DNA of 64,000 nt from Planctomycetota bacterium. Lineage in GTDB: Bacteria; Planctomycetota; B15-G4. A program made the translations under genes and the position numbers. Below the pieces are notes generated by a model that searched no databases, was not told where the DNA came from, and was given only the letters and a program-made list of their open reading frames with translations. Shown here one piece after another: positions 12,801-35,411 of the stretch (position 1 is the stretch's first letter; every line of letters begins with the position of its first letter). The stretch spans positions 64,001 to 128,000 of the forward strand of contig JBBQUR010000011.1 of NCBI GenBank assembly GCA_038212275.1, written 5' to 3'.

Positions 12801-14564
12801 ATGAATCGGATCCGCATCCTCTGCACCGCCACCGCGTTGTCGCTCGGCGCCGTTCCCGCGCCCGCCCAGTGGAGTGCCGACCCGGCCGGCAACCTCGCGG
12901 TGGCGGATGCCGCCAGCGACCAGTCCCAGGCGAAACTCGAGGCTGTCGCCGGCCAGGCCGTGTACCTGAGCTGGTTCGACGGCATCGGCAGCGGCTACGA
13001 CGTGCGCCTGCAGCAGCTCGACGCCGCGGGCCACGAGCTGTTCCCGCACGCGGGCGTGCTCGTGGCGGACCGCGGCTTCAGCTCCACGCAGGACTACGGT
13101 CTCTCGCACAGCGCCACGAACGACGCGCTGCTGGCCTTCCGCGACGATCGTCCCGGCGGCGTGCAGATCACCGCAGCCAAGGTGACCCCCGCCGGCAACC
13201 AGCCCTGGGGTGCGGCCGGCATCCAGCTCACCGCCACGGCTGCTTTCGTGGCCTCGCCGAAGATCGCCGGCACGGCGGACGGCGGCGCCGTGGTCGCCTG
13301 GACTCAGGACTCCTCCGTGCGCCTGCGCAAGCTGGACGCAAGCGGCGTCAAGCAGTGGGCCAGCGACGTCGTGCTCACGCCGGCCGCGGGCACCTACTCG
13401 GTCAGCGACCTGCACGCCGCGGGCAACGACGTCGTGCTCTCGATCGTGCACCAGACAGGCAGCTTCACTTCGCCGAAACAGCTGCGCACGCAGAAGTTCG
13501 ACAGCAACGGCACCGCGCTGTGGGGCGCCTCGCCCGTGTCCGTGTTCGACAGCGGCTCGCTGCAGTTCGGCAACTTCCCGGGCTTCGAGCCGGACGGCTC
13601 CGGTGGCGCGGTGTTCTCGTGGTACGGCACCTCGCCGTTGCAGTGCTGGGCGCAGCACATCAAGTCCGACGGGACCGAGGCCTATCCGCACAACGGCGTG
13701 GCGGTCTCCACCAACGCAGGCCAGGTCCGCGTGAATCCGTGGGCCTCCTACGATGCGGACAACGGCACGACGGTGGTGAGCTGGGTCGAACAGAATTCGC
13801 TGCAGTCCCAGTTCGGCCTGTCGAGCCAGAAGCTCGGCGCGACGGGCAACCGGCTCTGGGGCGCGCAGGGCGCGGTGCAGATCCCGCTCGGCAGCGCCGA
13901 GATCAGCAACGTGCGCAACATCACGTCCGCCGACACCACCTTCGTGTACTGGATGACGGCGCCCTCCTTCGGCCAGGACGTGATCCGCGGCCGGCGCCTC
14001 GCATCCGACGGCAGCACCGACATGGGGCCGTTCGACGTGGCCTCCACACCCAGCGACAAGCTGCGTGTGGCGCTGACGCGTGACAGCGCAGGGCAGATGG
14101 TCCTGGCCTGGACCGACGCGCTGGTCGACGAGGGTGACCTGCTCGCGCAGAACGTGAACTGTGACGGCACGCTGGGTGCACCCGCGCTCGGCGCTCACTG
14201 GACCGACCTCGGACAGGGCCTGGCGGGCCTCACGGGCGTGCCGACGCTGTCGGGCGAAGGCACGCTCTGTGGCGGTGCACCGTTCACGATCACGCTCGCC
14301 AACGCCCGCCCCAACAGCAGCGCGGCGCTGCTGGGCGGCTTCACCCAGGTCTTCCAGCCCTTCAAGGGCGGAGTGCTCGTGCCCAGCCCGGACCTGATCT
14401 TCGTCGGCCTGCCGACCGGCCCCGCGGGTTCGCTCGTGCTGGGCAGCATCTGGCCCGGCAACGTGCCCAGCGGTTTCCAGTTCACGATGCAGTGCTGGAT
14501 CAGCGACGTCGCCGGCCCCAAGGGTTTCTCGGCCAGCAACGGTCTGGAAGCCCAGTCGCCGTAA
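12801..14564 (+). CDS. Secreted beta-rich repeat protein with conserved PFKGG C-terminal domain
   Basis: AGGAG RBS; signal ending APA-Q; repeated DGxGGA(V)xxW and QKxDxxG..LWG units; CTD 14199-14564. Confidence 0.8.
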   Translation: MNRIRILCTATALSLGAVPAPAQWSADPAGNLAVADAASDQSQAKLEAVAGQAVYLSWFDGIGSGYDVRLQQLDAAGHELFPHAGVLVADRGFSSTQDYGLSHSATNDALLAFRDDRPGGVQITAAKVTPAGNQPWGAAGIQLTATAAFVASPKIAGTADGGAVVAWTQDSSVRLRKLDASGVKQWASDVVLTPAAGTYSVSDLHAAGNDVVLSIVHQTGSFTSPKQLRTQKFDSNGTALWGASPVSVFDSGSLQFGNFPGFEPDGSGGAVFSWYGTSPLQCWAQHIKSDGTEAYPHNGVAVSTNAGQVRVNPWASYDADNGTTVVSWVEQNSLQSQFGLSSQKLGATGNRLWGAQGAVQIPLGSAEISNVRNITSADTTFVYWMTAPSFGQDVIRGRRLASDGSTDMGPFDVASTPSDKLRVALTRDSAGQMVLAWTDALVDEGDLLAQNVNCDGTLGAPALGAHWTDLGQGLAGLTGVPTLSGEGTLCGGAPFTITLANARPNSSAALLGGFTQVFQPFKGGVLVPSPDLIFVGLPTGPAGSLVLGSIWPGNVPSGFQFTMQCWISDVAGPKGFSASNGLEAQSP

Positions 14565-14757
14565 GCGGTCCCGAAACTTCCGCGCGCTTCACGCCCGACG
14601 CGGCCCGCCCGAAGTGACCTGCGCCGGGTGACCTGCGCGTGGAGACGTTCATCAACCCACCCGGACGGCGCTGGACTCGATGGATGCTGCAAGGCACAAC
14701 GGCGCAGCCGGTCCAGGCGCGGGCGCGTCGCGGCCAGGCGCCGTGACCGGAGGCGAC

Positions 14758-17619
14758 GTGTCGGCAAGGGCGTGGATGCTTCTTTGTGCGGCGCTCACGC
14801 TGGTGGGCCTCGTGCTGCTGCGCGTCCCCTTCCGCTGGCTCCATCCGGACGAGGTGCTGCCGCTGGAGTTCTCCGCACTTGCGCCCGACGAGGGCCACGC
14901 CTTCCTGATGCCGCTGACGATTGCGCACGTCAGCGACCGCGACGGCCGCTCGAACCTGCACCTCTATGAGGACGACATGGAACTCGGGCCGGCGCACGCG
15001 CTGCACACCAGCATCCGGCAGGCGGGCGCCGGGGCCTACTCGCACTGGGGCGACTGGCTGTACTTCTCGGCCTCCGACGACAGTGATCCGCGCACGAACG
15101 GGCGCCGCTACGAAGCGCGCTTTCCGAAGACGGTCACCGACGCGCAGTCGCTGCCGGGCGCGGTGCTCGTGCTGCTGGCCGCTGTCGTGGCGCTGGCGGC
15201 GGTGCTGGCGCGCACCCGTGCGTTGCGCGCGGCAGGCGCAACGGCAGCCTCCGCCTGGGGCACCTGGCTTGCGGCCGGCGTGTTCGTCGCGCTCGGACTC
15301 CTCGTGCTCTTCGCGATGCACCGAAGGGATGTGCTCCGCGACAGCCTGGAGGAGTTGACGGCCTCGTTCACGGAGCCGCTCGTCACGGAGAACGCAGGCA
15401 CCGCGAAGGCCGACGACGCGCCGGGCGCCGGGCGCTCATCACCCGGCCGCGACATCGCCCCGCGAACGCTGCGCCTGCTCGATGCGCCGGACGCGCTGGA
15501 CTTCCGCGCCACGGGCGCCGCGCCGAGCGCACGAGCGCCCGTGACCGTGAGCTTCCCGAAAACGATCACGCTGGAGCCGGGCCAGCGCATGGAGTGCGCC
15601 TCGGCCTTCGACATGCGCGACGACGACCTCGCGGAACTGCAGCTCACGCTGCGCGTGCTGCAGGGCCGGAGCTTCCTGCTGCACTTCACGCTGAGCACGA
15701 CGCCGGAGGCTGCTGCCGGAGAAGGTGCTGGCGACACGTATCAGGCCTCGATCGAGGTGCCCGTCGAGCCCTCGGAAGACTGGCAGACGCTGTGCCTCGG
15801 CGAGCCGCTCGTGCTCTCGGGCGAGCAACTCTGGTCCGACGGCTCGGTGCATGTCACGCGCCTCGCGATCGGCAACCCGGACATGGCGCCCGGCCCCGTG
15901 CGGATCGAGGTGCGCGAGGCCGTGCTGTCCGGCGCGGGCGCCGTCTACACGCGCACGACGCACGGCAGCGGCCGCCTCGCGGTGGGCGACGACGATCGGA
16001 ACGCGTGGTGGCAGAGCGTCTCGGGCGGGGTGACCTTGCCGGCGACGGAACTCTCCGGCCGGCGACTGCGTGGCGCGGTCGCCCTGCTCGATCCGGAGGG
16101 CGTCGGCGGCACGGCGTCGTATCGCGTGGAGACCGTGGACGACGCGGGCAGACGCCGCGTGCTGCAGGCCGGCACGCTCGACGCCTCGCAGGGCTGGCTG
16201 GAGCTGCAGGCCGACGTGGCGCGCGACGCGGGGCCGCTGCGACTCGTCTTCGGATGCGATGAGCTGCCGGCGGGGACGGCGCTCGCGTGGTCTGCGCTGC
16301 GCGGCGTGGACCTGTCACGGCCGGCGCAGCGCGCGGTCTTCGTGCTGATCGACACGCTGCGCGCAGATGCCACCGGCTTCGGCGGCGGCCCGAGCGAGGC
16401 GACACCGGCGCTCGATGCCCTGGCGGCGCAGGGCGCGAGCTTCACGCGCTGCTACAGCCAGGCGAGCTGGACGCGGCCGTCCATGCCATCCATCCTCACG
16501 GGGCGCTACGTCGCAGCGACGGGCGTCCAGCTCATGGGGCAGCGCCTGCCGCTGCGCTACGAGACGATGGCGGAGTCCTTCGCGACGGCCGGCTTTCACA
16601 CGCTGGCCTTTCTCACGAACACGAACGCGGGTGCGGCCGCCGGCCTCGACCAGGGCTTCGATGAGCTCGTCCTGAAGTTCGACACGTCCATTCACGACAC
16701 GGAGCGATTCCTGGCGTCGGTCGTCTCGCCGCGCCTCGCGCAGCTGCCCGACGACGATCTCTTCGTGTCGGTGCACCTCATGGAAGTGCACGAGCCGTTC
16801 GGGCCGATCGACGAACCGCCGGAATGGCGCGGCGCAAGCGGCGGCGAGTCCCTGCCGCACGACGCGCACTACGACCGCCCGTGGGTTGCTGCCCCCACCG
16901 CGAACACGCGTCGCGAGCTCTACGCGCTGGACGTGCGGCGTACCGACCGCGCTCTCGGCGCCTTCTTCGACCGCTGGCTGCCCACGTGGGAGTCGGGCCA
17001 CGGCAGCCCGGTGATCGTGGCGGTGGCCTCGGACCACGGCGAGTTTCTCGGCGAGGGTGGTCACTGGGGGCACGGCTGGGAGCCGATGTCCTCCGCCGTG
17101 CTCCACGTGCCGCTGCTGCTGCGTGCGCCGGGACGCATCCCGCCAGGTGTGCGCTGCACGGAGGTCGTGCAGAACGTGGACATCTGCGAGACCATGCTCG
17201 CGCTGGCAGGCGTGCGGCGCCGCACCGTGGACGCCGGCGTCGCCGGCCGAAGCCTGCTGCCGCTGCTGGACTCGGGCGAACGCCGCGGCCCGCGGACGGC
17301 GCTGGCAGGACTCGAGAGCGGCCCCTCGCGCATCTTCACCGTGATCACCGCACAGCAGGAACTCGTGGGAGAGACGGGAAGGTTGCTGTCGCCACCGACC
17401 GACGGGCTGCAGGACCTGCTCGGCGCGCACAGCCCGCCGCAGACCTCGAGCGATGCGTCCCTGAACATCGAGGTCGACTTCGAGCGCGCGTGGGCGGCCT
17501 ACCTGCTCACACAACGGGCCTGGCGTCGGCAACTCTGGGAAGGCAGCAGCGCCGAGCCGATGACGCTCGAGCCGGGAGCACTGGAGCAGCTACAGACGCT
17601 GGGATACTTCGGCCGCTGA
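14758..17619 (+). CDS. Membrane-anchored sulfatase-like hydrolase/transferase (alkaline phosphatase superfamily)
   Basis: N-terminal TM helices; LIDTLRAD, SWTRPS, H.MEVHEPF, SDHGE, LHVPL, C-terminal LQTLGY; GTG start after GGAGG. Confidence 0.8.
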   Translation: MSARAWMLLCAALTLVGLVLLRVPFRWLHPDEVLPLEFSALAPDEGHAFLMPLTIAHVSDRDGRSNLHLYEDDMELGPAHALHTSIRQAGAGAYSHWGDWLYFSASDDSDPRTNGRRYEARFPKTVTDAQSLPGAVLVLLAAVVALAAVLARTRALRAAGATAASAWGTWLAAGVFVALGLLVLFAMHRRDVLRDSLEELTASFTEPLVTENAGTAKADDAPGAGRSSPGRDIAPRTLRLLDAPDALDFRATGAAPSARAPVTVSFPKTITLEPGQRMECASAFDMRDDDLAELQLTLRVLQGRSFLLHFTLSTTPEAAAGEGAGDTYQASIEVPVEPSEDWQTLCLGEPLVLSGEQLWSDGSVHVTRLAIGNPDMAPGPVRIEVREAVLSGAGAVYTRTTHGSGRLAVGDDDRNAWWQSVSGGVTLPATELSGRRLRGAVALLDPEGVGGTASYRVETVDDAGRRRVLQAGTLDASQGWLELQADVARDAGPLRLVFGCDELPAGTALAWSALRGVDLSRPAQRAVFVLIDTLRADATGFGGGPSEATPALDALAAQGASFTRCYSQASWTRPSMPSILTGRYVAATGVQLMGQRLPLRYETMAESFATAGFHTLAFLTNTNAGAAAGLDQGFDELVLKFDTSIHDTERFLASVVSPRLAQLPDDDLFVSVHLMEVHEPFGPIDEPPEWRGASGGESLPHDAHYDRPWVAAPTANTRRELYALDVRRTDRALGAFFDRWLPTWESGHGSPVIVAVASDHGEFLGEGGHWGHGWEPMSSAVLHVPLLLRAPGRIPPGVRCTEVVQNVDICETMLALAGVRRRTVDAGVAGRSLLPLLDSGERRGPRTALAGLESGPSRIFTVITAQQELVGETGRLLSPPTDGLQDLLGAHSPPQTSSDASLNIEVDFERAWAAYLLTQRAWRRQLWEGSSAEPMTLEPGALEQLQTLGYFGR

Positions 17620-17750
17620 GCGCGCGCACCACGGCGCAGCACGGCAAGCTGCTGCGCTCGCTTGCCGGATGCCCCCCGGATGCCCGGCGACGACCGCGAC
17701 GTGTCGCGCGGTCGTCGCCGGAAGCTGCACCGGGCGCAGCTCGATGAAGA

Positions 17751-20048: not shown

Positions 20049-21575
20049 ATGTACCGAACGATCTGTGCCCTGCTGCTGTCTGCATGCCCCGCCATGTCAC
20101 AGGTGGTCTTCGAACCGCCGGTGGCCACGCCGCTCTTTCACGTCACGCAAGGCGTCATCAGCGCCGACCTGAATCTCGACGGTCACGTCGACCTGATCAC
20201 GATGCCGCGCTTTCCGGGCGGCTTCTCCACAGCGGCGTTCTCGGTGCTGCTGGGAAACGGCGATGGCGGCTTCGGAGCGCCGCTCTTCACGTCGCTGGGC
20301 GCGCAGAATGCCGGCCGCGGCCGCGTGGCCTTCCTGAACGATGATGCGATTCCCGATCTGGTGCTGCCCTTTCATCCGGGTGTCGAGTCGGTGCGACTCT
20401 TCTTCGGCGCGGGCGACGGCACCTTCCCGACCTCACAGACGATCAGCGTCGCCTTCGCGCAGTCGATCGCGGATGTCATCCCCGTCGACCTGACGGGTGA
20501 CGGCAAGCTCGATTTCTTCGTGCTCGATGCGGGCCTGTCGATCTTCCTGCCCGGCAGGCTGCTGGCCCTGGTGGCCGACGGAGCGGGCTACACGCTGGTC
20601 TCGGGTCCGTCGCTGCAATTGGGCGCCACTCACGTCGCACTGGGCGATGTGAACGGCGACGCCGTGCTCGATGCCGTCGTGGCAAATGACATCTCCGGCA
20701 GCCTCTCCATCGCGCTGGGCCTGGGAGCGGGCAACTTTGCCGCGCCGACGAACGTGGCCGTGGGCGGGTCGCCGCGCGACCTCGCCATGGCCGACTTCGA
20801 TGGCGACGGAAAGCTCGACCTCGCCTTCGCGGACGCCTCGTCCGCCAACCGCGTCGTGTTGATGCACGGCGATGGCGCAGGGCACTTCTCGACGGTGCAG
20901 ACGCTCATCCTCGCAGGCACTCCGTCGAGACTCTCGGTCGGCATGCTCGATCCGGACGCGATGCTCGACCTGGTCGTGAGCCGGTTCGGCAGTGGCGAAA
21001 TCACGGTGCTTCGCGGTGTCGGCGACGGCAGCTTCACGGTCGGCGTCACGGTGAGCCATGTCCCCAATGCCGACGGCTCGACGCTGGCGGACTTCGACGA
21101 GGATGGCCTCCCGGACGTCGCGGTCGGCTCCTACGTCGGCCTCGGCACCTTCGAGCCGTTCAGCAGCGTGTACGTGATGCGCAATCACACCTATTCGACG
21201 AGTTCTCCATTCCTCGACCTCGGACATGCGCTCGCGGGCAGCAAGGGCTACCCGATCCTGCTCGCGGAGGGCGACCTTCAACCGGCCACGCCCATGCAGC
21301 TGCGTCTGGCGAACGGCCTCCCGCTGGGACAGGCCACGCTGGTGCTTGGATTCCGCCAGATCGATGTGCCGTTCAAGGGCGGCGTCATGGTGCCGTCCGT
21401 CGACGTGCTCGTCCCGGGGCTGGCCATCGATGCGCAGGGCGGCGTGACGCTGGACGCGTCGTGGCCCGCCGGCGTCTCCTCAGGCCTCAGCTTCTTCGCG
21501 CAATACTGGTTCAAGGACCTTGCCGCACCGACGCACGAAGGCAGCTCGAGCGCGGTGCGGGTGATCACGCCGTAG
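20049..21575 (+). CDS. Secreted FG-GAP/VCBS repeat protein with PFKGG C-terminal domain
   Basis: Signal ending AMS-Q; DxNxDG..DL and GxGDGxF repeats; CTD 21210-21575. Confidence 0.85.
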   Translation: MYRTICALLLSACPAMSQVVFEPPVATPLFHVTQGVISADLNLDGHVDLITMPRFPGGFSTAAFSVLLGNGDGGFGAPLFTSLGAQNAGRGRVAFLNDDAIPDLVLPFHPGVESVRLFFGAGDGTFPTSQTISVAFAQSIADVIPVDLTGDGKLDFFVLDAGLSIFLPGRLLALVADGAGYTLVSGPSLQLGATHVALGDVNGDAVLDAVVANDISGSLSIALGLGAGNFAAPTNVAVGGSPRDLAMADFDGDGKLDLAFADASSANRVVLMHGDGAGHFSTVQTLILAGTPSRLSVGMLDPDAMLDLVVSRFGSGEITVLRGVGDGSFTVGVTVSHVPNADGSTLADFDEDGLPDVAVGSYVGLGTFEPFSSVYVMRNHTYSTSSPFLDLGHALAGSKGYPILLAEGDLQPATPMQLRLANGLPLGQATLVLGFRQIDVPFKGGVMVPSVDVLVPGLAIDAQGGVTLDASWPAGVSSGLSFFAQYWFKDLAAPTHEGSSSAVRVITP

Positions 21576-23071: not shown

Positions 23072-23107
23072 GCGCCGCGCCCCCGGCTGCGCGGCCGTCC
23101 GGCACGC

Positions 23108-23566
23108 TCAGCGGGAGACAGGGATGACGTCCTGATCGACGCCGCGGCGTGCGAGCACCGCTCTCCACGCCGCGGCCTCGACGAGGCAGCCGCGGCGGTC
23201 GTACATCCTCGCCGTCTCGCGGGCGATGCGCAGCGTGTCGGGATGCGCCGCGCCCAGCGCCTCCTCGACGACCTGGTTCGCGCGCAGAAGCAGTGGCTCG
23301 GCCTCCTCGACCTTTCCGAGGTCGACGAGGCAACGTGCAAGGTCACCGCTGAAGGAACCCGTGACGCGGTTGTGCTCGCCCCAGATGGCCATCGCTCCGT
23401 CGACGGCTTCCCGCAGCAGCGGCTCGGCCTCGGCCGGGCGGCCGAGGATGGACAGCGTGAGGCCGAGGTCGTGCGTGGCGGCGACCACATCGCGATGCCC
23501 AGGCTCGTGCAGGGCGAGCACCGTGGTCCTGAGCCGCCGCACCTCGCTCCACGTCGCGCGGATCAC
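23108..23566 (-). pseudogene. TPR-only remnant of an ECF-associated Ser/Thr kinase (kinase domain apparently deleted in frame)
   Basis: GTGA overlap with ECF stop; MIRATWSEVRRL joined directly to TPRs (EAEPLLREA, LGAAHPDT). Confidence 0.6.
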
Positions 23567-24159
23567 GGGAGGCCAGGCCCGCGGGCCGGAGGCTCCGCGT
23601 CCAGTCCGATCGCATCGTGCAACCACGCGCGCGCCGTGCGCCAGCCGCGCTCCACGGTGCGCGAGGACACGCCGAGAACCTCGGCGATCTCGTCGTGCGT
23701 GAGCTGGCCGAAGAAGCGCAGCTCCACGATGCGCGCGAGCTGCTCGTCGAGCGCCGCGAGGCGGTCGAGAGCCTCATCGAGCGCGAGGAGGTGATGGGCC
23801 TGCTCCTCGACGACCAGCGCGTCCTCGGTGAGCGTGAGCCGCCGCATCCCGCCGCCGCGTTTCTCGGCGCCGCGGGCGCGCGCTTGATCGACGACCACGG
23901 AGCGCATGGCCTTGGCCGCCATGCCGAGAAAGTGCGCGCGGCTGGCGTAGTGGCGCTCGGCCGGCGCCACCAGCTTGAGGAAGGCCTCGTGCACCAGCGC
24001 CGTGGGCTGGAGCACGCGCTCGCCCGCATGCCGGGCGAGGCAGCCCTCCGCGAGCCGGTGCAACTCCGCGTAGATCAACGGGAACAACTCGTTGCCCGCC
24101 GCCTGGTCGCCCGCGCTCCAGCGTTCGAGAAGAAGGGTGATGCTCGTGGAGGCGGTCAT
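23563..24159 (-). CDS. ECF sigma factor, TIGR02999/kinase-associated type
   Basis: LFPLIY.ELHRLA, LQPTALVHEAFLKL, AM.SVVVD.AR, IVELRFFG, TVERGW..ARAWL. Confidence 0.92.
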   Translation of the reverse strand: MTASTSITLLLERWSAGDQAAGNELFPLIYAELHRLAEGCLARHAGERVLQPTALVHEAFLKLVAPAERHYASRAHFLGMAAKAMRSVVVDQARARGAEKRGGGMRRLTLTEDALVVEEQAHHLLALDEALDRLAALDEQLARIVELRFFGQLTHDEIAEVLGVSSRTVERGWRTARAWLHDAIGLDAEPPARGPGLP

Positions 24160-24269: not shown

Positions 24270-24731
24270 ATGAGCCGAGCCTTCATCAAGGAACCCGAGA
24301 GCTCCGGCCCCGCCTGCCCGGAGCCGCCGGGATGCGGCGGCCTCGGCGTGCCGGTGTCGCGCGTGACCCTGCTGGCGCGACTGCGTCCCGAAGCCGCCGC
24401 GCGCTTCGCGGCCGCGGGCTACTTCTGCCCCGACCCGGCGTGCGAGGTCGCCTACTTCGATGCCGGGCGGGAGCGGGCCATGCGGAGCGAGCTGCTCGCA
24501 CCCGCCTGGCCCAAGCACGCGGACGCGCCGCTGTGCGCGTGCTTCGGCCTCGCGCGGGACCTCTTCGAGGACTTCGGTCGCCGCGGCGACAAGGCCGCCA
24601 TGCGCGCCTTCCTCGAACGCACGGTCTCGGCCGAAGCGCGTTGCGAGAGCCGCGCCGCCGATGGCCGCTGCTGCGCCACCGAGGCCCGGCGCGTGTTCCT
24701 CCGCGCGCTGGAGAACGCCGCGGAGACGTGA
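24270..24731 (+). CDS. Cys-rich metal-binding protein (CopZ zinc-binding / BFD-like 2Fe-2S chaperone-like)
   Basis: CP...CG, YFCPDP.CEVAYF, LC.CFG, C......GRCC. Confidence 0.65.
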   Translation: MSRAFIKEPESSGPACPEPPGCGGLGVPVSRVTLLARLRPEAAARFAAAGYFCPDPACEVAYFDAGRERAMRSELLAPAWPKHADAPLCACFGLARDLFEDFGRRGDKAAMRAFLERTVSAEARCESRAADGRCCATEARRVFLRALENAAET

Positions 24732-26271: not shown

Positions 26272-27750
26272 ATGACACTCACGCTGCGAGTCGCCCTCTG
26301 CCTTGCCGTACTGGCCTTCCTCGGCGCAGAGATCTCCGCGCAGGGCGGCGGCTTCCACGCGGGCGAACTCTTCGTCTACACCAACGGCCTGACGTCGCCC
26401 GGCTACACCGGTGGCGGCATCATGCGCGTGGACCCGGTGACCGGCGCGAGCTCCGTGCTCGTGCAGACTCTGGGCGCGTACGACTTCACGGGCTCGATCG
26501 CCTTCGACCCGTACCGCCAGCGGCTCGTCTTCATCGCGGCGCTGCCGGGCGTCGATCCCTCGCCCAGGAACTATCTCTGGTTCGCGGACGGCGCCGGCAA
26601 CGTGCAGAACGTCTCCAAGCCCATCTTTCCCGAGGGCGTTCTCATGAACAGCATCGCGCCGACGCGCGATGGCCGCATCTACGCTTACGCGGTCATCAAC
26701 ACCACCGAGCCCCTGCGCTGGTTCGACGCGGCCAACCAGATTCACGTGCTGTACGACGCCGACGGCGTCACGCCGATGAAGATCGACGGTGACGGCTCCT
26801 ATCTGATGAACGGCATGATCCACGATGCGGGCACCAACGCGCTGTTCGTCGCCTCCACCAGGCCGAAGCCGGGCTTCCCGGAGGCGGCCGTCAACGTGCG
26901 CAAGCTGCCGCTCTCGCCCGATGGCTCGCGCGTCGTCGGCCCGGTCGGCAACGTGCAGTTCGAGATCAGCGCCAATCCGCCGGCTGCGAGCAGCGGCGAA
27001 ACGCCGCGCGGATGGAGCTACGGCCCGAACGGTCAGCTCGTGCTCGTCATCCTGTCCATCGACACCGAGGTCATGCCGCGCATGTTGCTCGTCGATCCGG
27101 TGACGTCGGCCATCTCCGTGTGGGGCAGCAACGGCGACACGATGATTCCCAATGGCGTCAGCACCAACACGGGCGGCGCCTACTGCTCCACGCTGAACAA
27201 GGTGGTCATGTCGGACTACTGGAACTCCAAGCTGCGCGCCTACGCGCAGGGTTCCACCGGCGGGCCGGGCAGCGTCATCCCGACCAGCCCGGTCTCGCCC
27301 ACGGGAAACGGCTACTACCTGAATGTCGTCGCGGTGCCGCCCGATGCGTGCACCGGCGGCTGGATCGCCTACGGCGTCGGACTCAAGGGCGCGGGCGATC
27401 TCGTGCCGAAGCTCATCGGTGCGGGCTGCGCCGAGCCTGGTGCCTCGATCACGCTGAAGATTTCCAACGCGGTCGGCGGCGCGAACGCGGCTCTCTTCGT
27501 CGGCCTCTCGCAGGGCGCGCTGCCCTTCAAGGGAGGCACGTTTCACCTCGGCTCCGCGCTGCTCACGATCAACCTGCCGCTGGGTGGCACGCCCGGCGCG
27601 GCCGGCGCGGGCGCGCTCACGCTGCCCACGTCGCTGCCGGCACTTCCGGCGCTTGCGGGCATGAGCATCTACCTGCAGGCCGCATGCAGCGACGCGGCCG
27701 CCGTGAAGGGCGTCTCGCTCACGCAGGGGCTCGAGCTGGAGATCGGCTGA
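26272..27750 (+). CDS. Secreted beta-rich protein with PFKGG C-terminal domain
   Basis: Signal ending ISA-Q; VDPVT repeats; CTD 27361-27750. Confidence 0.8.
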   Translation: MTLTLRVALCLAVLAFLGAEISAQGGGFHAGELFVYTNGLTSPGYTGGGIMRVDPVTGASSVLVQTLGAYDFTGSIAFDPYRQRLVFIAALPGVDPSPRNYLWFADGAGNVQNVSKPIFPEGVLMNSIAPTRDGRIYAYAVINTTEPLRWFDAANQIHVLYDADGVTPMKIDGDGSYLMNGMIHDAGTNALFVASTRPKPGFPEAAVNVRKLPLSPDGSRVVGPVGNVQFEISANPPAASSGETPRGWSYGPNGQLVLVILSIDTEVMPRMLLVDPVTSAISVWGSNGDTMIPNGVSTNTGGAYCSTLNKVVMSDYWNSKLRAYAQGSTGGPGSVIPTSPVSPTGNGYYLNVVAVPPDACTGGWIAYGVGLKGAGDLVPKLIGAGCAEPGASITLKISNAVGGANAALFVGLSQGALPFKGGTFHLGSALLTINLPLGGTPGAAGAGALTLPTSLPALPALAGMSIYLQAACSDAAAVKGVSLTQGLELEIG

Positions 27751-27915: not shown

Positions 27916-28899
27916 TCAGGCGCGCGTCGGGACCTCGACCGCGTGCGCGCGGCGGGTCTCCTTGCGGCCCTTGCGCAGGATGGTCAGCTCCAGCTCGCGG
28001 CCCAGGGCCTCGCCGTCGAGCATGCGGTGCAGGTCCGCGACGGACTGCACGGGCCGGCCGTCGAGGCCGACGATGATGTCGCCGGGGATGAGTCCGGCAG
28101 CCGCTGCGGGGCTTTCCTTCTCGATGCCGCGCACGGCGACGCCGCGTGCGTGCTCCAGCGCGTTGACGGACACGACGCGCGCCGGCAGCAGCACCTCCTC
28201 GACGCCGAGGCCGAGCCACGCGCGCCGCACGCGCCCATGCCGCAGGAATTCGGCAATCACGAAGCTGGCGGTGTTGGACGGGATCGCGAAGCACAAACCC
28301 TGCGCCGGCATGAACACGGCGGTGTTGATGCCGATGACGCGCCCCTCGCTGTCCAGCAGCGGGCCGCCGGAGTTTCCGGGGTTGAGCGGCGCATCGGTCT
28401 GAATGACACCCTCGATGGCGCGGCCCTGCGCGCCACCCAGCGTGCGGCCGAGCGCCGAGACGATGCCCGAGGTCACGGTGAACGAGAGCCCGTACGGCGA
28501 GCCGACCGCGATGGCGTAGTCCCCCACGCGCAGACTGTTGCTGTCACCGAGGTGCGCGCACGGGAACTTGCCGTCCGAGCTCAGGCGCAGCAGCGCGAGG
28601 TCGCTGGCCGGGTCGTCGCCGACGAGGTCCGCGAGCAGCGTGCGTCCGTCCGCCAGCGTGGCCTCGATGCCGGCGCTGCCGTGCACGACGTGGCTGTTGG
28701 TGAGCGCGTAGCCATCCGGCGTGACGAGGACGCCCGAGCCGCCCGCGATGCCGCCACCCGAGCCGTCGTCGCGCCCGCGGCGGGATGAGCGCCCCGCGCC
28801 CCGAAGTGTGCGGATGTTGAGGACGGAAGGCGCCACCGAATCGACGATGGCCGCCACTTCGTTGGAGAGCGAACGCATGATGTTCATGCGCGCCGTCAT
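27916..28899 (-). CDS. HtrA/S1C serine protease with PDZ domain, no signal peptide
   Basis: GSGV, LTNSHVV, DLALL, IQTDAPLNPGNSGGPL, C-terminal PDZ; start 28899 or 28887. Confidence 0.92.
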   Translation of the reverse strand: MTARMNIMRSLSNEVAAIVDSVAPSVLNIRTLRGAGRSSRRGRDDGSGGGIAGGSGVLVTPDGYALTNSHVVHGSAGIEATLADGRTLLADLVGDDPASDLALLRLSSDGKFPCAHLGDSNSLRVGDYAIAVGSPYGLSFTVTSGIVSALGRTLGGAQGRAIEGVIQTDAPLNPGNSGGPLLDSEGRVIGINTAVFMPAQGLCFAIPSNTASFVIAEFLRHGRVRRAWLGLGVEEVLLPARVVSVNALEHARGVAVRGIEKESPAAAAGLIPGDIIVGLDGRPVQSVADLHRMLDGEALGRELELTILRKGRKETRRAHAVEVPTRA

Positions 28900-28949
28900 A
28901 GCGCGCCCCCCGAAGCCTGGCAGCGCTCCGGTCAGGCGCACACACCACT

Positions 28950-29010
28950 CGCGGCCGAAGGCCTGGGCACGCGGCCGAAGGCCCGGGCTCGCGGCCGAAG
29001 GCCCGGCCAC
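28950..29010. repeat. 20-bp tandem repeat, 3 copies, upstream of the protease gene
   Basis: cgcggccgaaggcc(t/c)gg.c. x3. Confidence 0.8.
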
Positions 29011-29097: not shown

Positions 29098-31797
29098 TTA
29101 CGGCACCAGGCCGCGAAGCGCATTGGACAGCGCGACGTCGTGCACGGCGCCGGCGTCCTGGATGGCCCACTGCATCCACAGGGTGGTGCCGGCCGGCACG
29201 CCGGACGGCATCGTGAACGGCAGCGCGAGGTCGCCTGCCGCGTTCGTGCCGAGGAAGAGCATCAGCAGGCTCGGCACCGGCACCAGCACTCCGCCCTTGA
29301 AGGGCACCGGCGAACTGGCCAGCGCCGTGAAGAGCGCGGCCGGCGCCGACGGTGCGGCGTGCGTGAGCGTGACCGCATTGCTGCTGCCCGCGACGAGCGT
29401 GCCTGCACCGGTGAGCAGCGGCAGGCCGAGCGTGCCGGCCAGCGCCGAACCCTGGTGACTCCACGCCGAGTCGGCCTGGCCGAAGAGAATGGACACCTGC
29501 TCGCTCAGCGTGATGACCGGCATGCGCAGCGCCATGGCCGCCACGTCGAGCAAGCCGTCACCGTTGAGGTCGCCCGACGCCACCCAGAGAGCTTGACCGC
29601 CGATGCCGTGGCGCTTGCCGGGCAGCAGGTGGCCTTCGCCGTCGTTGACGTAGAGCACCGCATCCTCCGCGCCGCCGACCACGAGGTCGGGCAGGCCGTC
29701 TCCCGAGAAGTCCCCGGACGTGATGCCGTTGGTGCCGTTGAAGGAGAGCGACTTCGGCGCGGGCTGTGCGCTCCACGGGAAGAAGCCGCCTGCGCCGTCG
29801 TTGCGCATGACGACGACCTGGTCGAAGGAGCCCCACGTGCCGAGGCCGGCGCCGACGAGATCCCGCGCACCGTCGCCGTCCATGTCCACGGCGCGCACGG
29901 TGATGGTGAGCACGTAGGGGGCGAGGTCGTGCGCGACGGGCGTGGCGAAGCTGCCGTCGCCGTTGCCGTGCAGCACGAGGTAGCCGTTGGTGGGCGCCGG
30001 CGCGCCGCCGAACTGCGTGGCGCCCACGCCGACGAGATCCACGCGGCCGTCGCCGTCCAGGTCCGCGGCGTCAAGGTCGCTCATGCCCCACTGCAGCTTG
30101 TTGATGGTGGTCGCAGCGGCGAAGGTGCCGTCACCCTGATTGGCCAGCAGGTAGATCTGACTGATGGGCTTGCTCGGGCAGCCGCCGGTTTCGTTGCACG
30201 CGACATCGAGGTCACCGTCGCCGTCGAAGTCCCCCGCCGCGAGGTGGTACACGCCGCACGAGTTCGGCAGCGTCCACTGCACGTTGGGACCCCACTGGCC
30301 ATTGCCGAGATTGCGGTTGGTGTAGAAGTGATACGGCGCGGAGGACGGGTCCTTGACCTTGAGGATCTCCGGGCGCCCGTCGCCGTCGAGGTCGCGCAGG
30401 AGGAAGTTGCGGAAGCGGCCGGCGCCGCCGAAGAACGTGGTGCGGGTGAACGCGCCGTTCCCGTCATTGAGGTAGGTGTAGACGCTCACCGACATCGCGA
30501 CGATGTCGAGGTCGCCGTCGAGGTCCAGGTCCGCGATCTCGCAGCGATAGGCGTCCACCGCCTCCAGGTGCAGGAACTCGGGGAAGGCGCCGCCGTCGTT
30601 GCGGTGCACCTGCAGCGTGAGCAGGCCGTGATTGGTGATGAGCACGTCGCGGTCGCCGTCGGCGTCGATGTCGGCCGTGGAGATCGAACGCGAGTACTCG
30701 CCGGAGGCGAAGGTCTGCGGCGGCGCGAAGGCCCCGCCACCGAGGCCGCGCAGGAAGCCCCACCACGACAGCGCCTGGCCGCCGCAGGCCACGAGGTCGG
30801 GCACGCCGTCGCCGGTCACGTCGTCCAGGGACATCGAGTACGGCGTGGCCATCTCGTAGCCGGTCTCGATGGCCGTGACCGCGCCGAAGCTGCCATTGCC
30901 CTGGTTCTTCCAGAGCGAGAGCGCGCTGCTGCCGGGAATGCCGGCGGACGTACCGAAGCCGTAGACGACGTCGAGATCGCCGTCGGTGTCCACGTCGCCG
31001 AGGGCGACGGCCGGGACGGGGCCGGGGAAGGCCAGCGGCGCAGCGCCGGTCACGAGGCCGAGCGGCGCCGCGAAGCCACCGGCCGTGGCCAGCGAGACGG
31101 TCACTTCGGGAAGCGACTGCAGGTGCGTCGTCACGACGTCGGAGCGGCCGTCGCCGTCGAGGTCGCCCACGGCCAGCCAGTAGGGCTCGGGGCCGACCGG
31201 GATGTCGGTGCGCGTGAAGTGCGCGGAGCCGTCGTTGCGCAGCAGCGAGAGGTCGTTCTCGCCGGGCTTGCGATTCGCGGTGACAAGGTCGAGGTCGCCG
31301 TCGAGGTCGAAGTCGGCCGCCGCGATGGACATCGGGCCCTTGCCGCACGGGATGACCACGGCTGCGTCGAAACTGCCGTCGCCCTGATTGCGGTAGAGCA
31401 GCACGCTCTGCCCGGACGCACCGTTTTCAGATGCCTGCGTGAAGGCGAGGTCCAGGTCTCCGTCGCCGTCGAGGTCCGCGGCGCACACCGCGGAGGTCTC
31501 GCCGGGCGAGGGCATGAACACCGGGGCGCCGAACTCGCCGGTGCCGTCGTTGAACGAGATCGAGACCTGCGACGACAGGAAGTTGCCGATCTGCGCGTGC
31601 GCCACGTCGGGCGAGCCGTCGCCGTTCAGGTCCGCGACCACGTGCGCATTGGGCCGGTAGGGCGAGTTGGGCAGGTTGGCGCCGGCGCCGGTCTCGAAGG
31701 CGCGCTGCGGCGACGAAAGCGGCGAGTGCTGCGCGGCAGCCGTCACGGCGGACGAGCCGAGCGCCCCGAGGCAAAGCAGGAGAGTGCGGTGATTCAT
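29098..31797 (-). CDS. Large secreted FG-GAP/VCBS repeat protein with PFKGG C-terminal domain
   Basis: Signal ending AAA-Q; about 14 D(L/F)DGDGDLD..NxGxGxF repeats (possibly two propellers); CTD 29098-29463. Confidence 0.88.
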   Translation of the reverse strand: MNHRTLLLCLGALGSSAVTAAAQHSPLSSPQRAFETGAGANLPNSPYRPNAHVVADLNGDGSPDVAHAQIGNFLSSQVSISFNDGTGEFGAPVFMPSPGETSAVCAADLDGDGDLDLAFTQASENGASGQSVLLYRNQGDGSFDAAVVIPCGKGPMSIAAADFDLDGDLDLVTANRKPGENDLSLLRNDGSAHFTRTDIPVGPEPYWLAVGDLDGDGRSDVVTTHLQSLPEVTVSLATAGGFAAPLGLVTGAAPLAFPGPVPAVALGDVDTDGDLDVVYGFGTSAGIPGSSALSLWKNQGNGSFGAVTAIETGYEMATPYSMSLDDVTGDGVPDLVACGGQALSWWGFLRGLGGGAFAPPQTFASGEYSRSISTADIDADGDRDVLITNHGLLTLQVHRNDGGAFPEFLHLEAVDAYRCEIADLDLDGDLDIVAMSVSVYTYLNDGNGAFTRTTFFGGAGRFRNFLLRDLDGDGRPEILKVKDPSSAPYHFYTNRNLGNGQWGPNVQWTLPNSCGVYHLAAGDFDGDGDLDVACNETGGCPSKPISQIYLLANQGDGTFAAATTINKLQWGMSDLDAADLDGDGRVDLVGVGATQFGGAPAPTNGYLVLHGNGDGSFATPVAHDLAPYVLTITVRAVDMDGDGARDLVGAGLGTWGSFDQVVVMRNDGAGGFFPWSAQPAPKSLSFNGTNGITSGDFSGDGLPDLVVGGAEDAVLYVNDGEGHLLPGKRHGIGGQALWVASGDLNGDGLLDVAAMALRMPVITLSEQVSILFGQADSAWSHQGSALAGTLGLPLLTGAGTLVAGSSNAVTLTHAAPSAPAALFTALASSPVPFKGGVLVPVPSLLMLFLGTNAAGDLALPFTMPSGVPAGTTLWMQWAIQDAGAVHDVALSNALRGLVP

Positions 31798-32148
31798 GAC
31801 GAGTGCCTTTCCATCGCGAGCGACGAACGAGTGATGGCGAGCGGCGCTCACCCGGAACCACCGGAGTGCAAGTCGCGTGCCGGACGAGCAAAGCTGCCCT
31901 GCGACCGCGTGCAGCGGCGCTCCGTCGCCGCGAGCGCTCGGCGGACAAGCTGCCCGGATGTCCACGATCCGGCCCTCATGCCCGGAATGCACACACGCGC
32001 GAAGCCTTCAAGCGCTCGGCGACACGTGACACGAACTTCACTATGTTGACTCTTATGTCGTCTTATCATCCTGGACATCGACAGCCGAGTTCTGGCCCGA
32101 TGGGCGGGCCCGCGACGGTTGCATCGAATTCCCCCGAGGACGCCCCCG

Positions 32149-33549
32149 ATGCTTCGCTTGCTCCCCTTCCGCCCCTCCCGATCACTGGCCTCAGGCGCCT
32201 GCGGCATCGCCGTCGGCCTGCTCCTCCTGACCGGCCCCCTCGGCGCGCAGGCGCTGCCCGCCTACCACGCCGAGTATCTCGGCGCCGCCGTGCACGTGGC
32301 CGCGATGAACGACGCGGGCCTCGTCGTCGGCACCGGCTCCCTCGGCATCCACTCTCGCGCTTACGTCGCCGGGCCCGGCAAGCCGCTCACGTATCTCCCG
32401 ATTCCGTTCGGCTTCCTCAGCAGCGGCGCGGCGGACATCAACGAGTCCGGCGTCATCGTCGGTGTCATGAGCCCTTACCAGACGACCAGCTTCTATCCGC
32501 AACCGGCGCGCTGGGATCCCGACGGCGCGGGCGGCTACAAGGTCACGCTGCTCCTCACCCTGCCCGGCGACAATCGTGGCACCGCCGACGCGATCAACGA
32601 CCTCGGCGACATCGTGGGCACCTCCAACTACCAGAGCAACCTGCACACGGTGCTGTACGCGCCGACCGGCACGGTGAATCTGCCCGGACTCGCCAGCTAC
32701 AAGCCGCTGTCGCTCAACAACCAGCGCCTGTACGTCACCGGCAACTCGCGCATCAGCCTGAACACGTTGACCGTCCAGAACCTCGGCGTACCGGCCGGCT
32801 TCACCAGCGCCAAGGCGTGGGTGATCAACAACAACGGCCAGGTGGCGGGCGACCTCACGATGCCGGCGGGCTCAGGCTGCCCGGCGGATGCCGGCGTGTA
32901 CACCGACGGCCTCGGCTGGCTGCCGGTCGGCGCGTGCGGCGCGACTGTCTCCAGCTACGACATCAACGATCTGGGCGACGTGCTCCTGCAGAAGGACAAC
33001 CAGCCCTGGCTTCACCTGCAGGGCGGCCCCACCGTGCGCGTCGAGGATCTGATCGTCGCGCAGACCGGCCACTGGACGGTGAACAGTCCATACAACATGG
33101 CCCTCAACGACTTGCGCCAGATGGCCGTGTACGCGACGAACGGCGGACTGTCGGGCATCATCCTGATCACGCCCGACACCAAGGTGGTGTGCCAGACCGA
33201 CCTTGGCTACGACGGCCCCGGCGCGCTGCAGCTCTCGATGTGCGGCGGCGATCTCTCGAGCGGCACGCACGCCGACCTGCAGATCAGCGGTGCGGCGCCG
33301 GGCGGGCTGACCTGGCTGCTGGCGAGCGCCACCCAGCAACCGACGCCCTTCAAGGGCGGCACGCTGGTGCCCGTGCCGGTGGACCTGGTGCTGTCGCTGA
33401 CGGCTGATGGCAACGGCGTGGCCGGCATTTCGGGCATCTCGGGCGGCAACGGACCGTTCTCGGTCTACCTGCAGGCCGTCGCGCAGGATCCCGGCCAGCC
33501 GCAGGGCTGGACCATCTCCCAGGCGGTGCGCGCCGATTTCCTGCCGTGA
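32149..33549 (+). CDS. Secreted HAF-repeat-like protein with PFKGG C-terminal domain
   Basis: GAGGA RBS; signal ending LGA-Q; A.xIN(D/N)xGx(I/V)VG repeats; CTD about 33190-33549. Confidence 0.8.
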   Translation: MLRLLPFRPSRSLASGACGIAVGLLLLTGPLGAQALPAYHAEYLGAAVHVAAMNDAGLVVGTGSLGIHSRAYVAGPGKPLTYLPIPFGFLSSGAADINESGVIVGVMSPYQTTSFYPQPARWDPDGAGGYKVTLLLTLPGDNRGTADAINDLGDIVGTSNYQSNLHTVLYAPTGTVNLPGLASYKPLSLNNQRLYVTGNSRISLNTLTVQNLGVPAGFTSAKAWVINNNGQVAGDLTMPAGSGCPADAGVYTDGLGWLPVGACGATVSSYDINDLGDVLLQKDNQPWLHLQGGPTVRVEDLIVAQTGHWTVNSPYNMALNDLRQMAVYATNGGLSGIILITPDTKVVCQTDLGYDGPGALQLSMCGGDLSSGTHADLQISGAAPGGLTWLLASATQQPTPFKGGTLVPVPVDLVLSLTADGNGVAGISGISGGNGPFSVYLQAVAQDPGQPQGWTISQAVRADFLP

Positions 33550-33700
33550 CCTGTCCCTCGGCCTGCACCTGAGCTGATGCGCAGCAAGGTGCAGGCCGAC
33601 GACGCCCGCGTGGCCCCAGCGCGCGCGCCGTACTCGCCACACTCGCCGTTCGAAGTGCTCGCCGCGTTCGCGCCGTTTGCGGTGCTCGCGCCGTTCGCGC

Positions 33701-33731
33701 CTCAGGGGCTCAGGGGCTCAGGGGCTCAGGG
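33701..33731. repeat. 8-bp tandem repeat overlapping a stop codon
   Basis: ctcagggg x about 4; degenerate cgccgttcg repeats at 33643-33700. Confidence 0.75.
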
Positions 33732-35411
33732 AGTGGTCAGCTTCTGCGCGTTGCTGAGCAGCACGCCGGGGACGTGGCCCGCGTCCTTGATGACGAACTG
33801 CACGAAGAGGTCGAAGCCGCCGGGGAGGCCTGCCGGCCACGTCGTCGGGAGACTCAGCTGGCCGGACGCATCGGCCTTCCAGATGATCTCGCTGAGCTGG
33901 GGCAACGTGTAGAGCGTGCCGCCGAGCACGGGGAGCGGGCTCGACGTGATCGAGAGCCACGAGATCATGAAGGCATTCGCCGGTGCGTGCGCCACGTCGA
34001 ACGTGACAGGCGAGCCGACCACCAGGCTGCCCGTGCCTGTCAACGTGGGCGCTCCGTTGCTGCCCGCCGTGTGGCCGCCCATGTCGGTCCAGGGACTGAG
34101 CCGGCGCACGGAGAAGTCCCACGGGTCGGCCATGTAGTCGCCGAAGGCCGGCTTGACCGGGAAGGTCACCGGGTCGAAGCCGTGGATCCCCAGATCGAAG
34201 ATCTCCAGCTGACGCTCGCCGGCGTCCATGCCGTCGCCGTCCCCATTGAGGTCCTCGAAGCGGTGGATCCAGACGTTGCCGTTCGGGCCCGGGATGAGCG
34301 CCGGGAAGGGCTTGAGACCCGCGGCGTAGACAGTGCCGCCGTCGATCACGTCGAGGCCGCGCAGGATCAGCAGGTCGGGGTCACCGTCGGTGTAGCTGCC
34401 GTCGTAGAAGGTGTGCACTTCGCCCGCGTCATTGATGTCGCCATCCCCGTTGCCATCGACGCCACGGAGGATGAGGAAGTTGAGGCCCTGGCCCGACAGG
34501 TTGTGGCCCGACGGGTTGAAGGGCGAGACGCTCGTTCCGAAATAGAAGGCCCGCACGCCGTTCTCGATCGAGGTGGCCATCTGCCAGAAGCTGGCGGGAT
34601 AGCCCGCCGCAGTCTGCAGGCTCTTCAGCGTGCCGTCGGCAAAGTCGGGGTTCATCGGAAGGTCCGGCCGTTCGCCGGTGGCATTCAGCAGCAGGATCGA
34701 CTCGCCGGCGTCCAGCACGTCGCCGTCGTGGTTCAGGTCATCGAAGCGGTAGATGGCGCCATCGGGTTCCTGGAAAGCGATGACGCCGTCGCCGGCCGCG
34801 GCAATGCTGGTGAGCGACCAGGCCTTGGTGGTCGAGGTGCCGAGGTCGTGTTCGATGGTGTGCGCCACGTTGCCGTTCACCATCAGGATCTGCTCGCCGG
34901 CGTCGGCGGCGTCGCCGTCAGCGTTCAGGTCCTTGAGGCGCAGCAGGCCGTTCACGGGCTGGCTGAGAAGGTATGCCGAGGTCCACCAGACGGCGCCGTC
35001 GTCGGTGATGTCCAGCGCCGCCGGAGACGATGCGCCGTCCAGGGCCCCGGAATCGCGGTAGACCTTGACCTCGCTCGCGCCCGCCATCGTGCCGTCGCCA
35101 TTGACGTCCACGCCGCGATAGATGCGCCCGGTGGACGGGTGCAACCAGTAGCTGACCACCTGGCCCGCTTCCTTCGTGACGCGCATGTTGTGAGCCGTGC
35201 TCGCGCCGGGCTGGCCGGCACCGAGATGCAGCTTGACCTCGCCGGCGCCCAGGAAGGTGCCGTCGCCATCCAGATCGTCGAAGCGCTGGAAACGCGAGTT
35301 CCAGTTGTCGGCCCAGTAGATGGAGACGGGCTGGGCCTGCGCGACGAGGTGCGACGCCAGACTCAGCGTGAGAAGGGAGACGGGCATCATGAAGCGGAGG
35401 AAGGCGTGCAT
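33726..35411 (-). CDS. Secreted protein with DxNGDGDxxDAGE Ca-binding-like repeats and the conserved C-terminal domain
   Basis: AAGGA RBS; signal ending AQA-Q; six DLNGDG...GE motifs; CTD 33726-34091. Confidence 0.82.
   Translation of the reverse strand: MHAFLRFMMPVSLLTLSLASHLVAQAQPVSIYWADNWNSRFQRFDDLDGDGTFLGAGEVKLHLGAGQPGASTAHNMRVTKEAGQVVSYWLHPSTGRIYRGVDVNGDGTMAGASEVKVYRDSGALDGASSPAALDITDDGAVWWTSAYLLSQPVNGLLRLKDLNADGDAADAGEQILMVNGNVAHTIEHDLGTSTTKAWSLTSIAAAGDGVIAFQEPDGAIYRFDDLNHDGDVLDAGESILLLNATGERPDLPMNPDFADGTLKSLQTAAGYPASFWQMATSIENGVRAFYFGTSVSPFNPSGHNLSGQGLNFLILRGVDGNGDGDINDAGEVHTFYDGSYTDGDPDLLILRGLDVIDGGTVYAAGLKPFPALIPGPNGNVWIHRFEDLNGDGDGMDAGERQLEIFDLGIHGFDPVTFPVKPAFGDYMADPWDFSVRRLSPWTDMGGHTAGSNGAPTLTGTGSLVVGSPVTFDVAHAPANAFMISWLSITSSPLPVLGGTLYTLPQLSEIIWKADASGQLSLPTTWPAGLPGGFDLFVQFVIKDAGHVPGVLLSNAQKLTTP

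Follow-up and report, generated by a model that had tools for sequence, protein, structure and literature searches.

Among the described elements that are appended to exported bacterial proteins, the C-terminal domains of type IX secretion systems (T9SS) measure roughly 70-100 amino acids (aa), dockerins are Ca-binding helical pairs and SLH modules are helix bundles, whereas the PPC domain (PF04151) forms a beta-sandwich at the C-terminal end of secreted hydrolases and is presumably either cleaved off or an aid to secretion. Here, we describe a C-terminal domain, referred to as CTD throughout, that is shared by six proteins encoded in a 64,000-nt stretch of DNA of a Planctomycetota bacterium (the window: positions 64,001 to 128,000 of contig JBBQUR010000011.1, assembly GCA_038212275.1). 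Judged by sequence, the CTD appears to be deployed like a sorting or anchoring tag, i.e., as a single, terminal copy on diverse exported passengers. With a probability of about 0.5, it represents a module for docking or anchoring that is specific to the lineage, folds on its own and attaches many Sec-exported proteins to an envelope component that can be reached from the periplasm.

The six open reading frames (ORFs) were all found at the starts listed in the first-pass annotation of the window. Gene 1 (12801..14564, + strand; 587 aa) combines a signal peptide and a beta-rich passenger with a CTD of 121 aa (14199..14561, + strand), which ends in QSP directly before the stop codon and matches a profile of the six domain copies with an E value of 3.8e-50; a public protein of 587 aa is on record that is 100% identical over this CTD. 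Gene 2 (20049..21575, + strand) carries FG-GAP repeats (FG-GAP_3, E 1.7e-30) between its signal peptide and a CTD of 121 aa (21210..21572, + strand; ending in ITP; profile E 5.2e-50), and gene 4 (29098..31797, - strand) exhibits a signal peptide, a long FG-GAP array (FG-GAP_3, E 2.7e-84) and, again, a 121-aa CTD (29101..29463, - strand; ending in LVP; profile E 4.7e-48). In gene 6 (33726..35411, - strand; 561 aa), the signal peptide is followed by an Asp/Gly-rich repeat passenger and by a CTD of 121 aa (33729..34091, - strand; ending in TTP; profile E 1.3e-50) in which the core PFKGG is replaced by PVLGG. Two genes encode Cys-containing variants of the domain behind a signal peptide and passenger: gene 3 (26272..27750, + strand; 492 aa; E 3.7e-38), whose copy contains a 6-residue insertion and ends in EIG (27361..27747, + strand), and gene 5 (32149..33549, + strand; 466 aa; CTD E 4.6e-38), whose copy ends in FLP before the stop (33193..33546, + strand). 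The earlier passenger calls held for the two FG-GAP proteins; the HAF-like assignment of gene 5 is weak and lies under the cut-off (HAF_rpt, E 3.3e-4), and the passengers of genes 1, 3 and 6 belong to no Pfam or NCBIfam family. The starts of four genes agree with the lengths of public proteins on a 166,871-bp contig (587, 561, 492, and 466 aa). By reading, all six N-termini were judged to be signal-peptide-like, with basic residues, a hydrophobic run and a small-residue site ending in AQ.

The four regular copies, including their stop codons (14199-14564, 21210-21575, 29098-29463, and 33726-34091), each comprise 121 aa plus stop and align without gaps, and the 19 invariant positions counted by hand in the first-pass annotation were reproduced exactly. 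In pairwise comparison, these copies are identical at 33-49 of 121 positions (27-40%). The two remaining copies differ by small indels and extra cysteines, and 10 columns are invariant across all six. When the profile was run against the ORFs of the genome, the six proteins scored with E values of 1e-38 to 1e-50; by this sequence measure, the similarity of the six CTDs is homology, beyond chance.

The census was extended to the source genome (4.65 Mb in 40 contigs, ~70% G+C, 91% complete; genome label G000), for which the six-copy profile was searched against 38,109 stop-to-stop ORFs and matches were counted at a domain E value < 1e-3. The CTD was found in 132 ORFs which, measured from stop to stop, account for ~5% of the genome (80,940 residues for 123 of them). 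It is present once per protein; none of the 132 ORFs carries two copies, in tandem or otherwise. In 127 ORFs (96%) the domain ends no more than 11 residues from the stop codon and in 71 of the 132 it ends exactly at the last profile position. The same placement was observed in public sequences, as the CTD lies at the very C-terminus in the best 150 of 8,235 matching protein clusters and is C-terminal in 79 of 81 copies from loci of other genomes. Five ORFs of the source genome are exceptions: an N-terminal copy (L051), an internal copy (L115), two divergent N-terminal copies (L030 and L031), and one partial match that ends 19 residues ahead of the stop. Three short ORFs (G000:C7:24059-24238, C23:32389-32571, and C15:87242-87511; 60-90 aa) are matched by the final portion of the CTD profile only and look like remnants of decayed CTD genes.

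The passengers are highly diverse. Family scans with Pfam (2025) and NCBIfam (June 2026) covered 126 CTD proteins in total, i.e., the six window proteins and 120 of the 123 further CTD ORFs with a length of at least 150 aa; the other three, short and with hardly any passenger, were excluded, and so, at an earlier stage, were three ORFs below 150 aa. At a Pfam threshold of E <= 1e-5, 31 of the 120 further passengers are FG-GAP proteins, 46 fall into about 26 other Pfam families and 43 have no family. Peptidases of families S8, M10, and M12 are found next to sulfatases, LTD plus EEP nucleases, phosphoesterase, phytase-like, alpha/beta-hydrolase, GSDH and metallo-beta-lactamase (MBL) enzymes and a PMT_2 glycosyltransferase, whereas Kelch, beta-helix, WD40, NHL, PD40, and BNR represent repeat and propeller passengers; DUF642, DUF7948, CHRD, Laminin_B, TSP_C, and Ice_binding domains were also identified. 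No Pfam glycoside-hydrolase family occurs among the 120 passengers scanned. The NCBIfam matches include the choice-of-anchor families L, J, and C (C three times above the cut-off), and two passengers are ExeM/NucH extracellular nucleases, the ExeM model being named for its GlyGly-CTERM form. In other bacteria, members of the choice-of-anchor families, as the name implies, and of the ExeM family carry other C-terminal sorting signals. Their presence among the CTD proteins therefore lends independent support to an addressing or anchoring role. Another passenger (L110, G000:C25:40935-43475) is a multihaem cytochrome of the MtrC/MtrF-like kind that contains nine CxxCH motifs as well as a Big_9 domain, ends in a CTD and starts with a plain signal peptide without a lipobox cysteine. 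The MtrC homologues of Shewanella are surface lipoproteins. No recognizable porin-cytochrome cluster, barrel or periplasmic cytochrome gene was found beside L110. A 979-aa sulfatase encoded between two CTD genes of the window (14680-17619, + strand) lacks a CTD, whereas the sulfatases L021 and L088 of the genome carry one.

Conservation of the domain is pronounced at a limited set of positions. From 105 well-aligned copies the consensus W-x-D-L-G...G...P-x-L-x-G-x-G...P-F-K-G-G-(T/V)-L-V-P...G...W-P-x-G...Q-x4-D...G-x-(A/S)-x-(S/T)-N-x-L...T-P-stop was derived, in which the final residue is Pro in 77 copies. Some 20 positions are nearly invariant among 456 distinct copies, including Q102 (455 copies), G81 (453), S/T117 (450), G62 (447), P90 (444), D107 (442), N118 (418), and K60 (407), and the aromatic residues W5 and W89 are also counted among them; most conserved residues are Gly, Pro or hydrophobic. 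The strand that contains Q102 is hydrophobic on both faces, and Q102 may be a buried residue with a structural role. Within one genome, the identity between copies is 27-40%, whereas orthologous copies in other genomes reach up to 70%; there is thus no concerted evolution. That the same positions are conserved despite such low within-genome identity points, at the level of sequence, to a common partner or to shared fold constraints. The 98 passenger-CTD junctions that were compared are short and variable, often of the form P-x-x-W-T-D-L-G, and contain no conserved upstream motif or linker suggestive of a cleavage site. An intramolecular Lys-Asn isopeptide bond was considered and is not supported, since losses of K60 and N118 are uncoupled in the 456 copies (Fisher p 0.25); adhesin Ig domains with ester or isopeptide bonds (e.g., CPE0147 repeats) gave weak Foldseek matches (E about 3e-4, TM 0.32-0.38), and the CTD has no conserved His. 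On the strand opposite the CTD coding region, long ORFs with high third-position G+C (GC3) recur that group together as a "family" (e.g., G000:C8:86034-86378, + strand; 38 ORFs in L143-L221). This family is an artefact that stems from the conservation and high G+C content of the CTD sequence, and gene callers could be misled by it.

The AlphaFold model of the CTD is confident (pLDDT 86.8, pTM 0.77) and is an all-beta sandwich of about eleven strands. The structural matches listed for it are generic Ig, macroglobulin or Fn3-like sandwiches, with Foldseek TM values < 0.5 and Z scores of a structure aligner of at most 8.2, the usual background, and no specific fold relative was found in the structure libraries. 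A predicted homodimer complex scored 0.01, which is no evidence either way. Neither Pfam nor NCBIfam yielded a match to the CTD in the 126 proteins scanned (for the six window proteins, at E <= 0.1), and no PDB sequence matched it below an E value of 0.38. The impression of the first-pass annotation that no named family is involved is thus borne out: current libraries of domains and structures do not contain the CTD family. In a protein language-model atlas, the nearest clusters are unnamed hypothetical proteins of Planctomycetota, and the public names of CTD proteins are either "hypothetical protein" or taken from the passenger only. A full-text literature search, judged from titles and the openings of abstracts, returned no description of the domain.

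Two conserved arrangements depart from the common pattern and bear on how the CTD works. In L051, a signal peptide is directly followed by the CTD and then by an MBL-fold domain. This order within a single ORF was found in four genomes of three families (G000, G146, G022, and G397); in the latter three, the CTD match lies immediately upstream of the MBL part in the same open frame. Since this N-terminal architecture is conserved, the CTD evidently works without a free C-terminus. The MBL part itself was detected in 23 of 401 genomes, 22 of which carry the CTD. With a presence in only 22 of 80 CTD genomes, an MBL-fold partner was rejected as a universal component. The second arrangement is that of L103, a polytopic membrane glycosyltransferase of the GT-C type with a PMT_2 match and at least eight predicted transmembrane (TM) segments, whose CTD is attached through about 40 residues of (Gly-Ala)n linker. 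The L103 orthologue in G322, a genome of another genus, is 44% identical and also ends in a CTD behind a different low-complexity linker (40-60 residues in the two proteins); it was the only one detected among 41 genomes of the order. In both CTDs, Arg replaces K60 and the final residue is not Pro. As a polytopic inner-membrane protein L103 cannot be exported, and its CTD must therefore act in the periplasm, away from the inner membrane. The glycosyltransferase was rejected as general machinery, its membrane part being present in only two of the 41 genomes, and is kept as a topological clue. The strict C-terminal position that had been anticipated applies to 127 of the 132 ORFs. Frequent internal occurrences had been named in the first-pass annotation as evidence against its reading, and departures of this kind were found in a minority that is small and yet conserved: the N-terminal copy with an MBL part in four genomes of three families, the one internal copy, and the copy tethered to a polytopic inner-membrane glycosyltransferase. 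They speak against a secretion signal that is strictly C-terminal. A further departure is seen in L030 and L031 (G000:C4:144061-155149), adjacent giant paralogues of 1,301 and 1,771 aa with malectin, IPT/TIG, GSDH-like propeller and Kelch domains, among others, which both contain a divergent, Cys-containing CTD copy right after the signal peptide.

The phyletic range was assessed in a public collection of 1.84 billion representative proteins (six-copy profile, E <= 1e-3, clusters at 50% identity), which supplied the 8,235 clusters mentioned above, and in 401 sampled Planctomycetota genomes. The CTD occurs in 80 of the latter, which represent at least ten separate families, with families showing an all-or-none distribution, and in all 42 genomes surveyed from the window's own class. 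Within this class, families f1 and f2 mostly contain at least 104 matches per genome, family f3 contains 9-67 and family f105 only 4-7. Among the best 80 public loci, 75 originate from metagenome-assembled genomes (MAGs) labelled as Planctomycetota or Phycisphaerae-type and 5 from MAGs with other labels; no cultured strain is found among these 80. Four loci (L171, L176, L177, and L201) belong to G420, a MAG with a gammaproteobacterial label that contains 139 CTD matches genome-wide, similar to genomes of the window's class, and a neighbour gene that is 78% identical to one in the source genome, which makes the label doubtful. Another MAG, G419, with a myxobacterial label (L214), contains only two matches, both on one 10-kb contig that is probably mis-binned. 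The two MAGs thus give no secure evidence for the CTD outside of Planctomycetota.

No machinery is evident in the window, as the first-pass annotation had also remarked, and the search was continued in the whole genome. The T9SS CTD model TIGR04183 had no match there. The SprA models TIGR04189 and PF14349, the GldM model PF12081 and the C25 peptidase model PF01364 were likewise unmatched in the 91%-complete genome; as their controls remained silent above the cut-off, these are weak negatives. A C25 peptidase as an analogue of PorU was rejected, because one public CTD protein has a C25 passenger and no C25 peptidase was found in the source genome, which makes it just another passenger. The exosortase model PF09721 had no match in the source genome and its control was positive, whereas the control for the equally unmatched PEP-CTERM model PF07589 was silent. 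Exosortase was detected in 169 of the 401 genomes, namely in 31 of the 80 with CTD and in 138 of the 321 without. It is neither required for nor replaced by the CTD and was discarded as machinery or alternative system, given its absence from the source genome and its independent distribution. A self-repeat scan of 45 large ORFs for a scaffoldin gave no off-diagonal matches, a screen that probably failed technically.

Analysis of the genomic context within 4 kb of CTD genes revealed an enrichment of Ser/Thr kinase-TPR proteins (14 of 32 vs. a 20% background), extracytoplasmic function (ECF) sigma factors and B12-binding radical-SAM proteins (8 of 17), with P values that are uncorrected for 83 families. 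The radical-SAM family has 17 members (G000:C4:199426-201273 and 16 paralogues, e.g., L125-L128; uncorrected p 0.012), one of which shares 26 bases with the terminal part of the ORF of a CTD gene. In the window, the neighbours comprise a sulfatase, a propeller protein, an ECF sigma factor and anti-sigma factor, an HtrA-like protease-PDZ protein, a POT transporter and an M28 peptidase. The ECF sigma factor (23566-24159, - strand) and the zinc-finger anti-sigma-like gene (24270-24731, + strand) are situated among the CTD genes. This context suggests that the tagged proteins are under ECF or kinase control. The HtrA-like trypsin-PDZ protease (27919-29010, - strand) is encoded 88 bases downstream of the gene 4 stop codon on the same strand; two of its four paralogues are located near CTD genes, which is not significant.

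In the model that we favour, the CTD proteins would be exported by Sec and the last ~121 residues would fold independently into a beta-sandwich. After export, an envelope component within reach of the periplasm, either a protein scaffold or an envelope glycan, would bind the folded CTD and thereby hold more than 100 different passengers at the envelope or surface, among them proteases, nucleases, sulfatases, phosphatases, FG-GAP and propeller proteins, and the multihaem cytochrome. We infer the docking function and the place of action in this scheme. The earlier proposal had left the choice between a secretion, an anchoring, and a scaffold-docking domain; the N-terminal MBL fusion together with the membrane glycosyltransferase tether leads us to favour docking or anchoring over a strictly C-terminal secretion signal. 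Several observations weigh against this preference. No partner, receptor or machinery for the CTD was found, the enriched neighbours are regulators or modifiers rather than translocons, and no non-CTD neighbour recurs in the 80 loci of other genomes, where only the antisense artefacts did. The conserved polar residues could be purely structural. Moreover, a genome-wide signal-peptide heuristic was positive for 97 of 127 CTD ORFs (76%) and for 302 of 600 control ORFs (50%); because it discriminates so poorly, the case for export rests mainly on the six N-termini that were read and on the passenger types, from which, and from the signal peptides in particular, we infer that CTD proteins are probably Sec-exported. 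Finally, the 96% C-terminal position and the C-terminal Pro would equally fit a true C-terminal signal.

Such a signal, resembling the CTD of the T9SS, would be recognized by an outer-membrane translocon of a novel kind that carries the passenger across, whereupon the CTD would be cleaved off by a peptidase, either with covalent linkage to a surface glycan or without it. Besides the chain-end position in 127 of 132 ORFs and the conserved T-P-stop terminus, the abundance of cargo-like hydrolases and adhesin-like proteins, of which a genome contains more than 100, and the choice-of-anchor passengers speak for this mechanism, as does the MtrC-like cytochrome, which carries a CTD and no lipobox and whose homologues act on the cell surface. 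It is nevertheless rendered unlikely by the N-terminal architecture in four genomes of three families and by the tethering of the CTD to an inner-membrane glycosyltransferase in two genera; the 98 junctions without cleavage-site motif or linker, and the failure to detect a translocon candidate or, with weak controls, any T9SS part, point in the same direction. It is improbable, on the other hand, that the CTD faces outward as a carbohydrate-binding or adhesive module, which would attach to a polymer or surface in the environment and thereby gather enzymes at a substrate. Here, the predicted fold of the carbohydrate-binding module (CBM) or Ig type, the invariant polar K, Q, D, S/T, and N residues together with the aromatic W5 and W89, and a flexible position (N-terminal, or internal in L115), as in CBMs, have to be balanced against 120 passengers of which none has a Pfam glycoside-hydrolase family and many are non-enzymes (FG-GAP, WD40, cytochrome), against the absence of tandem copies and of any match between the domain and a Pfam CBM family, and against the copy on an inner-membrane enzyme that is unable to reach the outside.

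We give least credence to a passive structural or maturation module, i.e., a folding or stability cap comparable to PPC or a shuffled spacer without any addressing role. Generic Ig-like structural matches (Z <= 8.2, Foldseek TM < 0.5), the preponderance of Gly, Pro, and hydrophobic residues among the conserved positions, and the failure to find a partner would all be compatible with it. Yet spacer Ig domains are usually tandem and internal, whereas the CTD is single and in 96% of cases terminal; it is kept in 42 of 42 genomes of the class, often in at least 100 copies, its polar residues hardly vary among 456 copies, PF04151 does not match it, and a long flexible linker to a membrane enzyme would be needless for a folding cap.

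A more far-reaching version of the docking model would regard the CTD as the cargo tag of an undescribed envelope sorting or surface-display system, present in one uncultured Planctomycetota class and in scattered further lineages of the phylum, comprising 100-300 proteins per genome and about 5% of the coding DNA, and relying on a receptor or translocon outside of the known secretion-system families. This wider claim is put forward as a tentative possibility only. If the CTD indeed serves as a tag for addressing or docking, it marks out what an entire uncultured class exports as its "surface proteome", with proteases, nucleases, sulfatases, phosphatases, adhesin-like repeats and a multihaem cytochrome of the extracellular type, and it implies an envelope receptor or sorting device outside of the known secretion and anchoring systems. 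The profile would annotate many thousands of "hypothetical" proteins (8,235 clusters at 50% identity) and provides a direct handle for a partner search by phylogenetic profiling or pull-down. As the biology of the planctomycete envelope, with its enlarged periplasm and polymer uptake, is poorly understood, an abundant tag offers a concrete entry point. New in this work are the counts across the genome and across the class, the finding that exosortase is distributed independently of the CTD, the passengers of the choice-of-anchor and ExeM families, and the two conserved non-canonical architectures.

With the PPC domain, the CTD shares the beta-sandwich and the C-terminal position on secreted hydrolases; unlike PPC, it is not confined to peptidases, never occurs in tandem and has a far higher copy number, in addition to being unmatched by PF04151. 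The signals of the PEP-CTERM/exosortase, GlyGly-CTERM/rhombosortase and LPXTG/sortase systems are attached to overlapping passengers (choice-of-anchor C, J, and L; ExeM-type nucleases). However, these signals are short and combine a motif and a TM helix with a basic tail, whereas the CTD is a soluble domain of 121 aa ending in Pro. Direct reading of the six window C-termini, which end in SP, TP, VP, TP, IG, and LP, agrees with the earlier remark that a TM-plus-basic tail is missing: an LPXTG-type motif and hydrophobic tail are not present, nor are the TM helix and basic tail of PEP-CTERM proteins, whose exosortase was not found in the source genome. Dockerin-cohesin and SLH systems resemble the CTD in that a small autonomous module, usually terminal and not absolutely fixed in position, is appended to many exported proteins. 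These modules bind, non-covalently, a scaffold or wall polymer that they have in common, a role in which the CTD may be likened to them. The all-beta sandwich of the CTD differs from their helical folds; none of the 126 proteins has a match to the Pfam dockerin or SLH families, and no cohesin-like scaffold was identified.

The resemblance to the T9SS CTDs of Bacteroidota (TIGR04183/PF18962, Por_Secre_tail, type A; TIGR04131, type B) lies in a beta-sandwich, here a predicted one, that terminates many unrelated proteins exported by Sec; each carries one copy, and a genome encodes dozens to hundreds of such cargo proteins, including peptidases, nucleases and adhesin-like repeats. In sequence, the lack of resemblance claimed for the window CTD was confirmed, as it was not matched by the T9SS CTD models, and the structural matches listed comprise only generic Ig- or macroglobulin-like domains and no T9SS CTD. 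The window CTD is also longer (about 121 aa) and is encoded by Planctomycetota, SprA, GldM, and C25 peptidase were undetected in its genome (with weak controls), and it is not obligately C-terminal, given the conserved N-terminal and membrane-tethered copies. Taken together, the CTD belongs to none of the T9SS CTD, dockerin and SLH families and is, in its presumed function, analogous to them.

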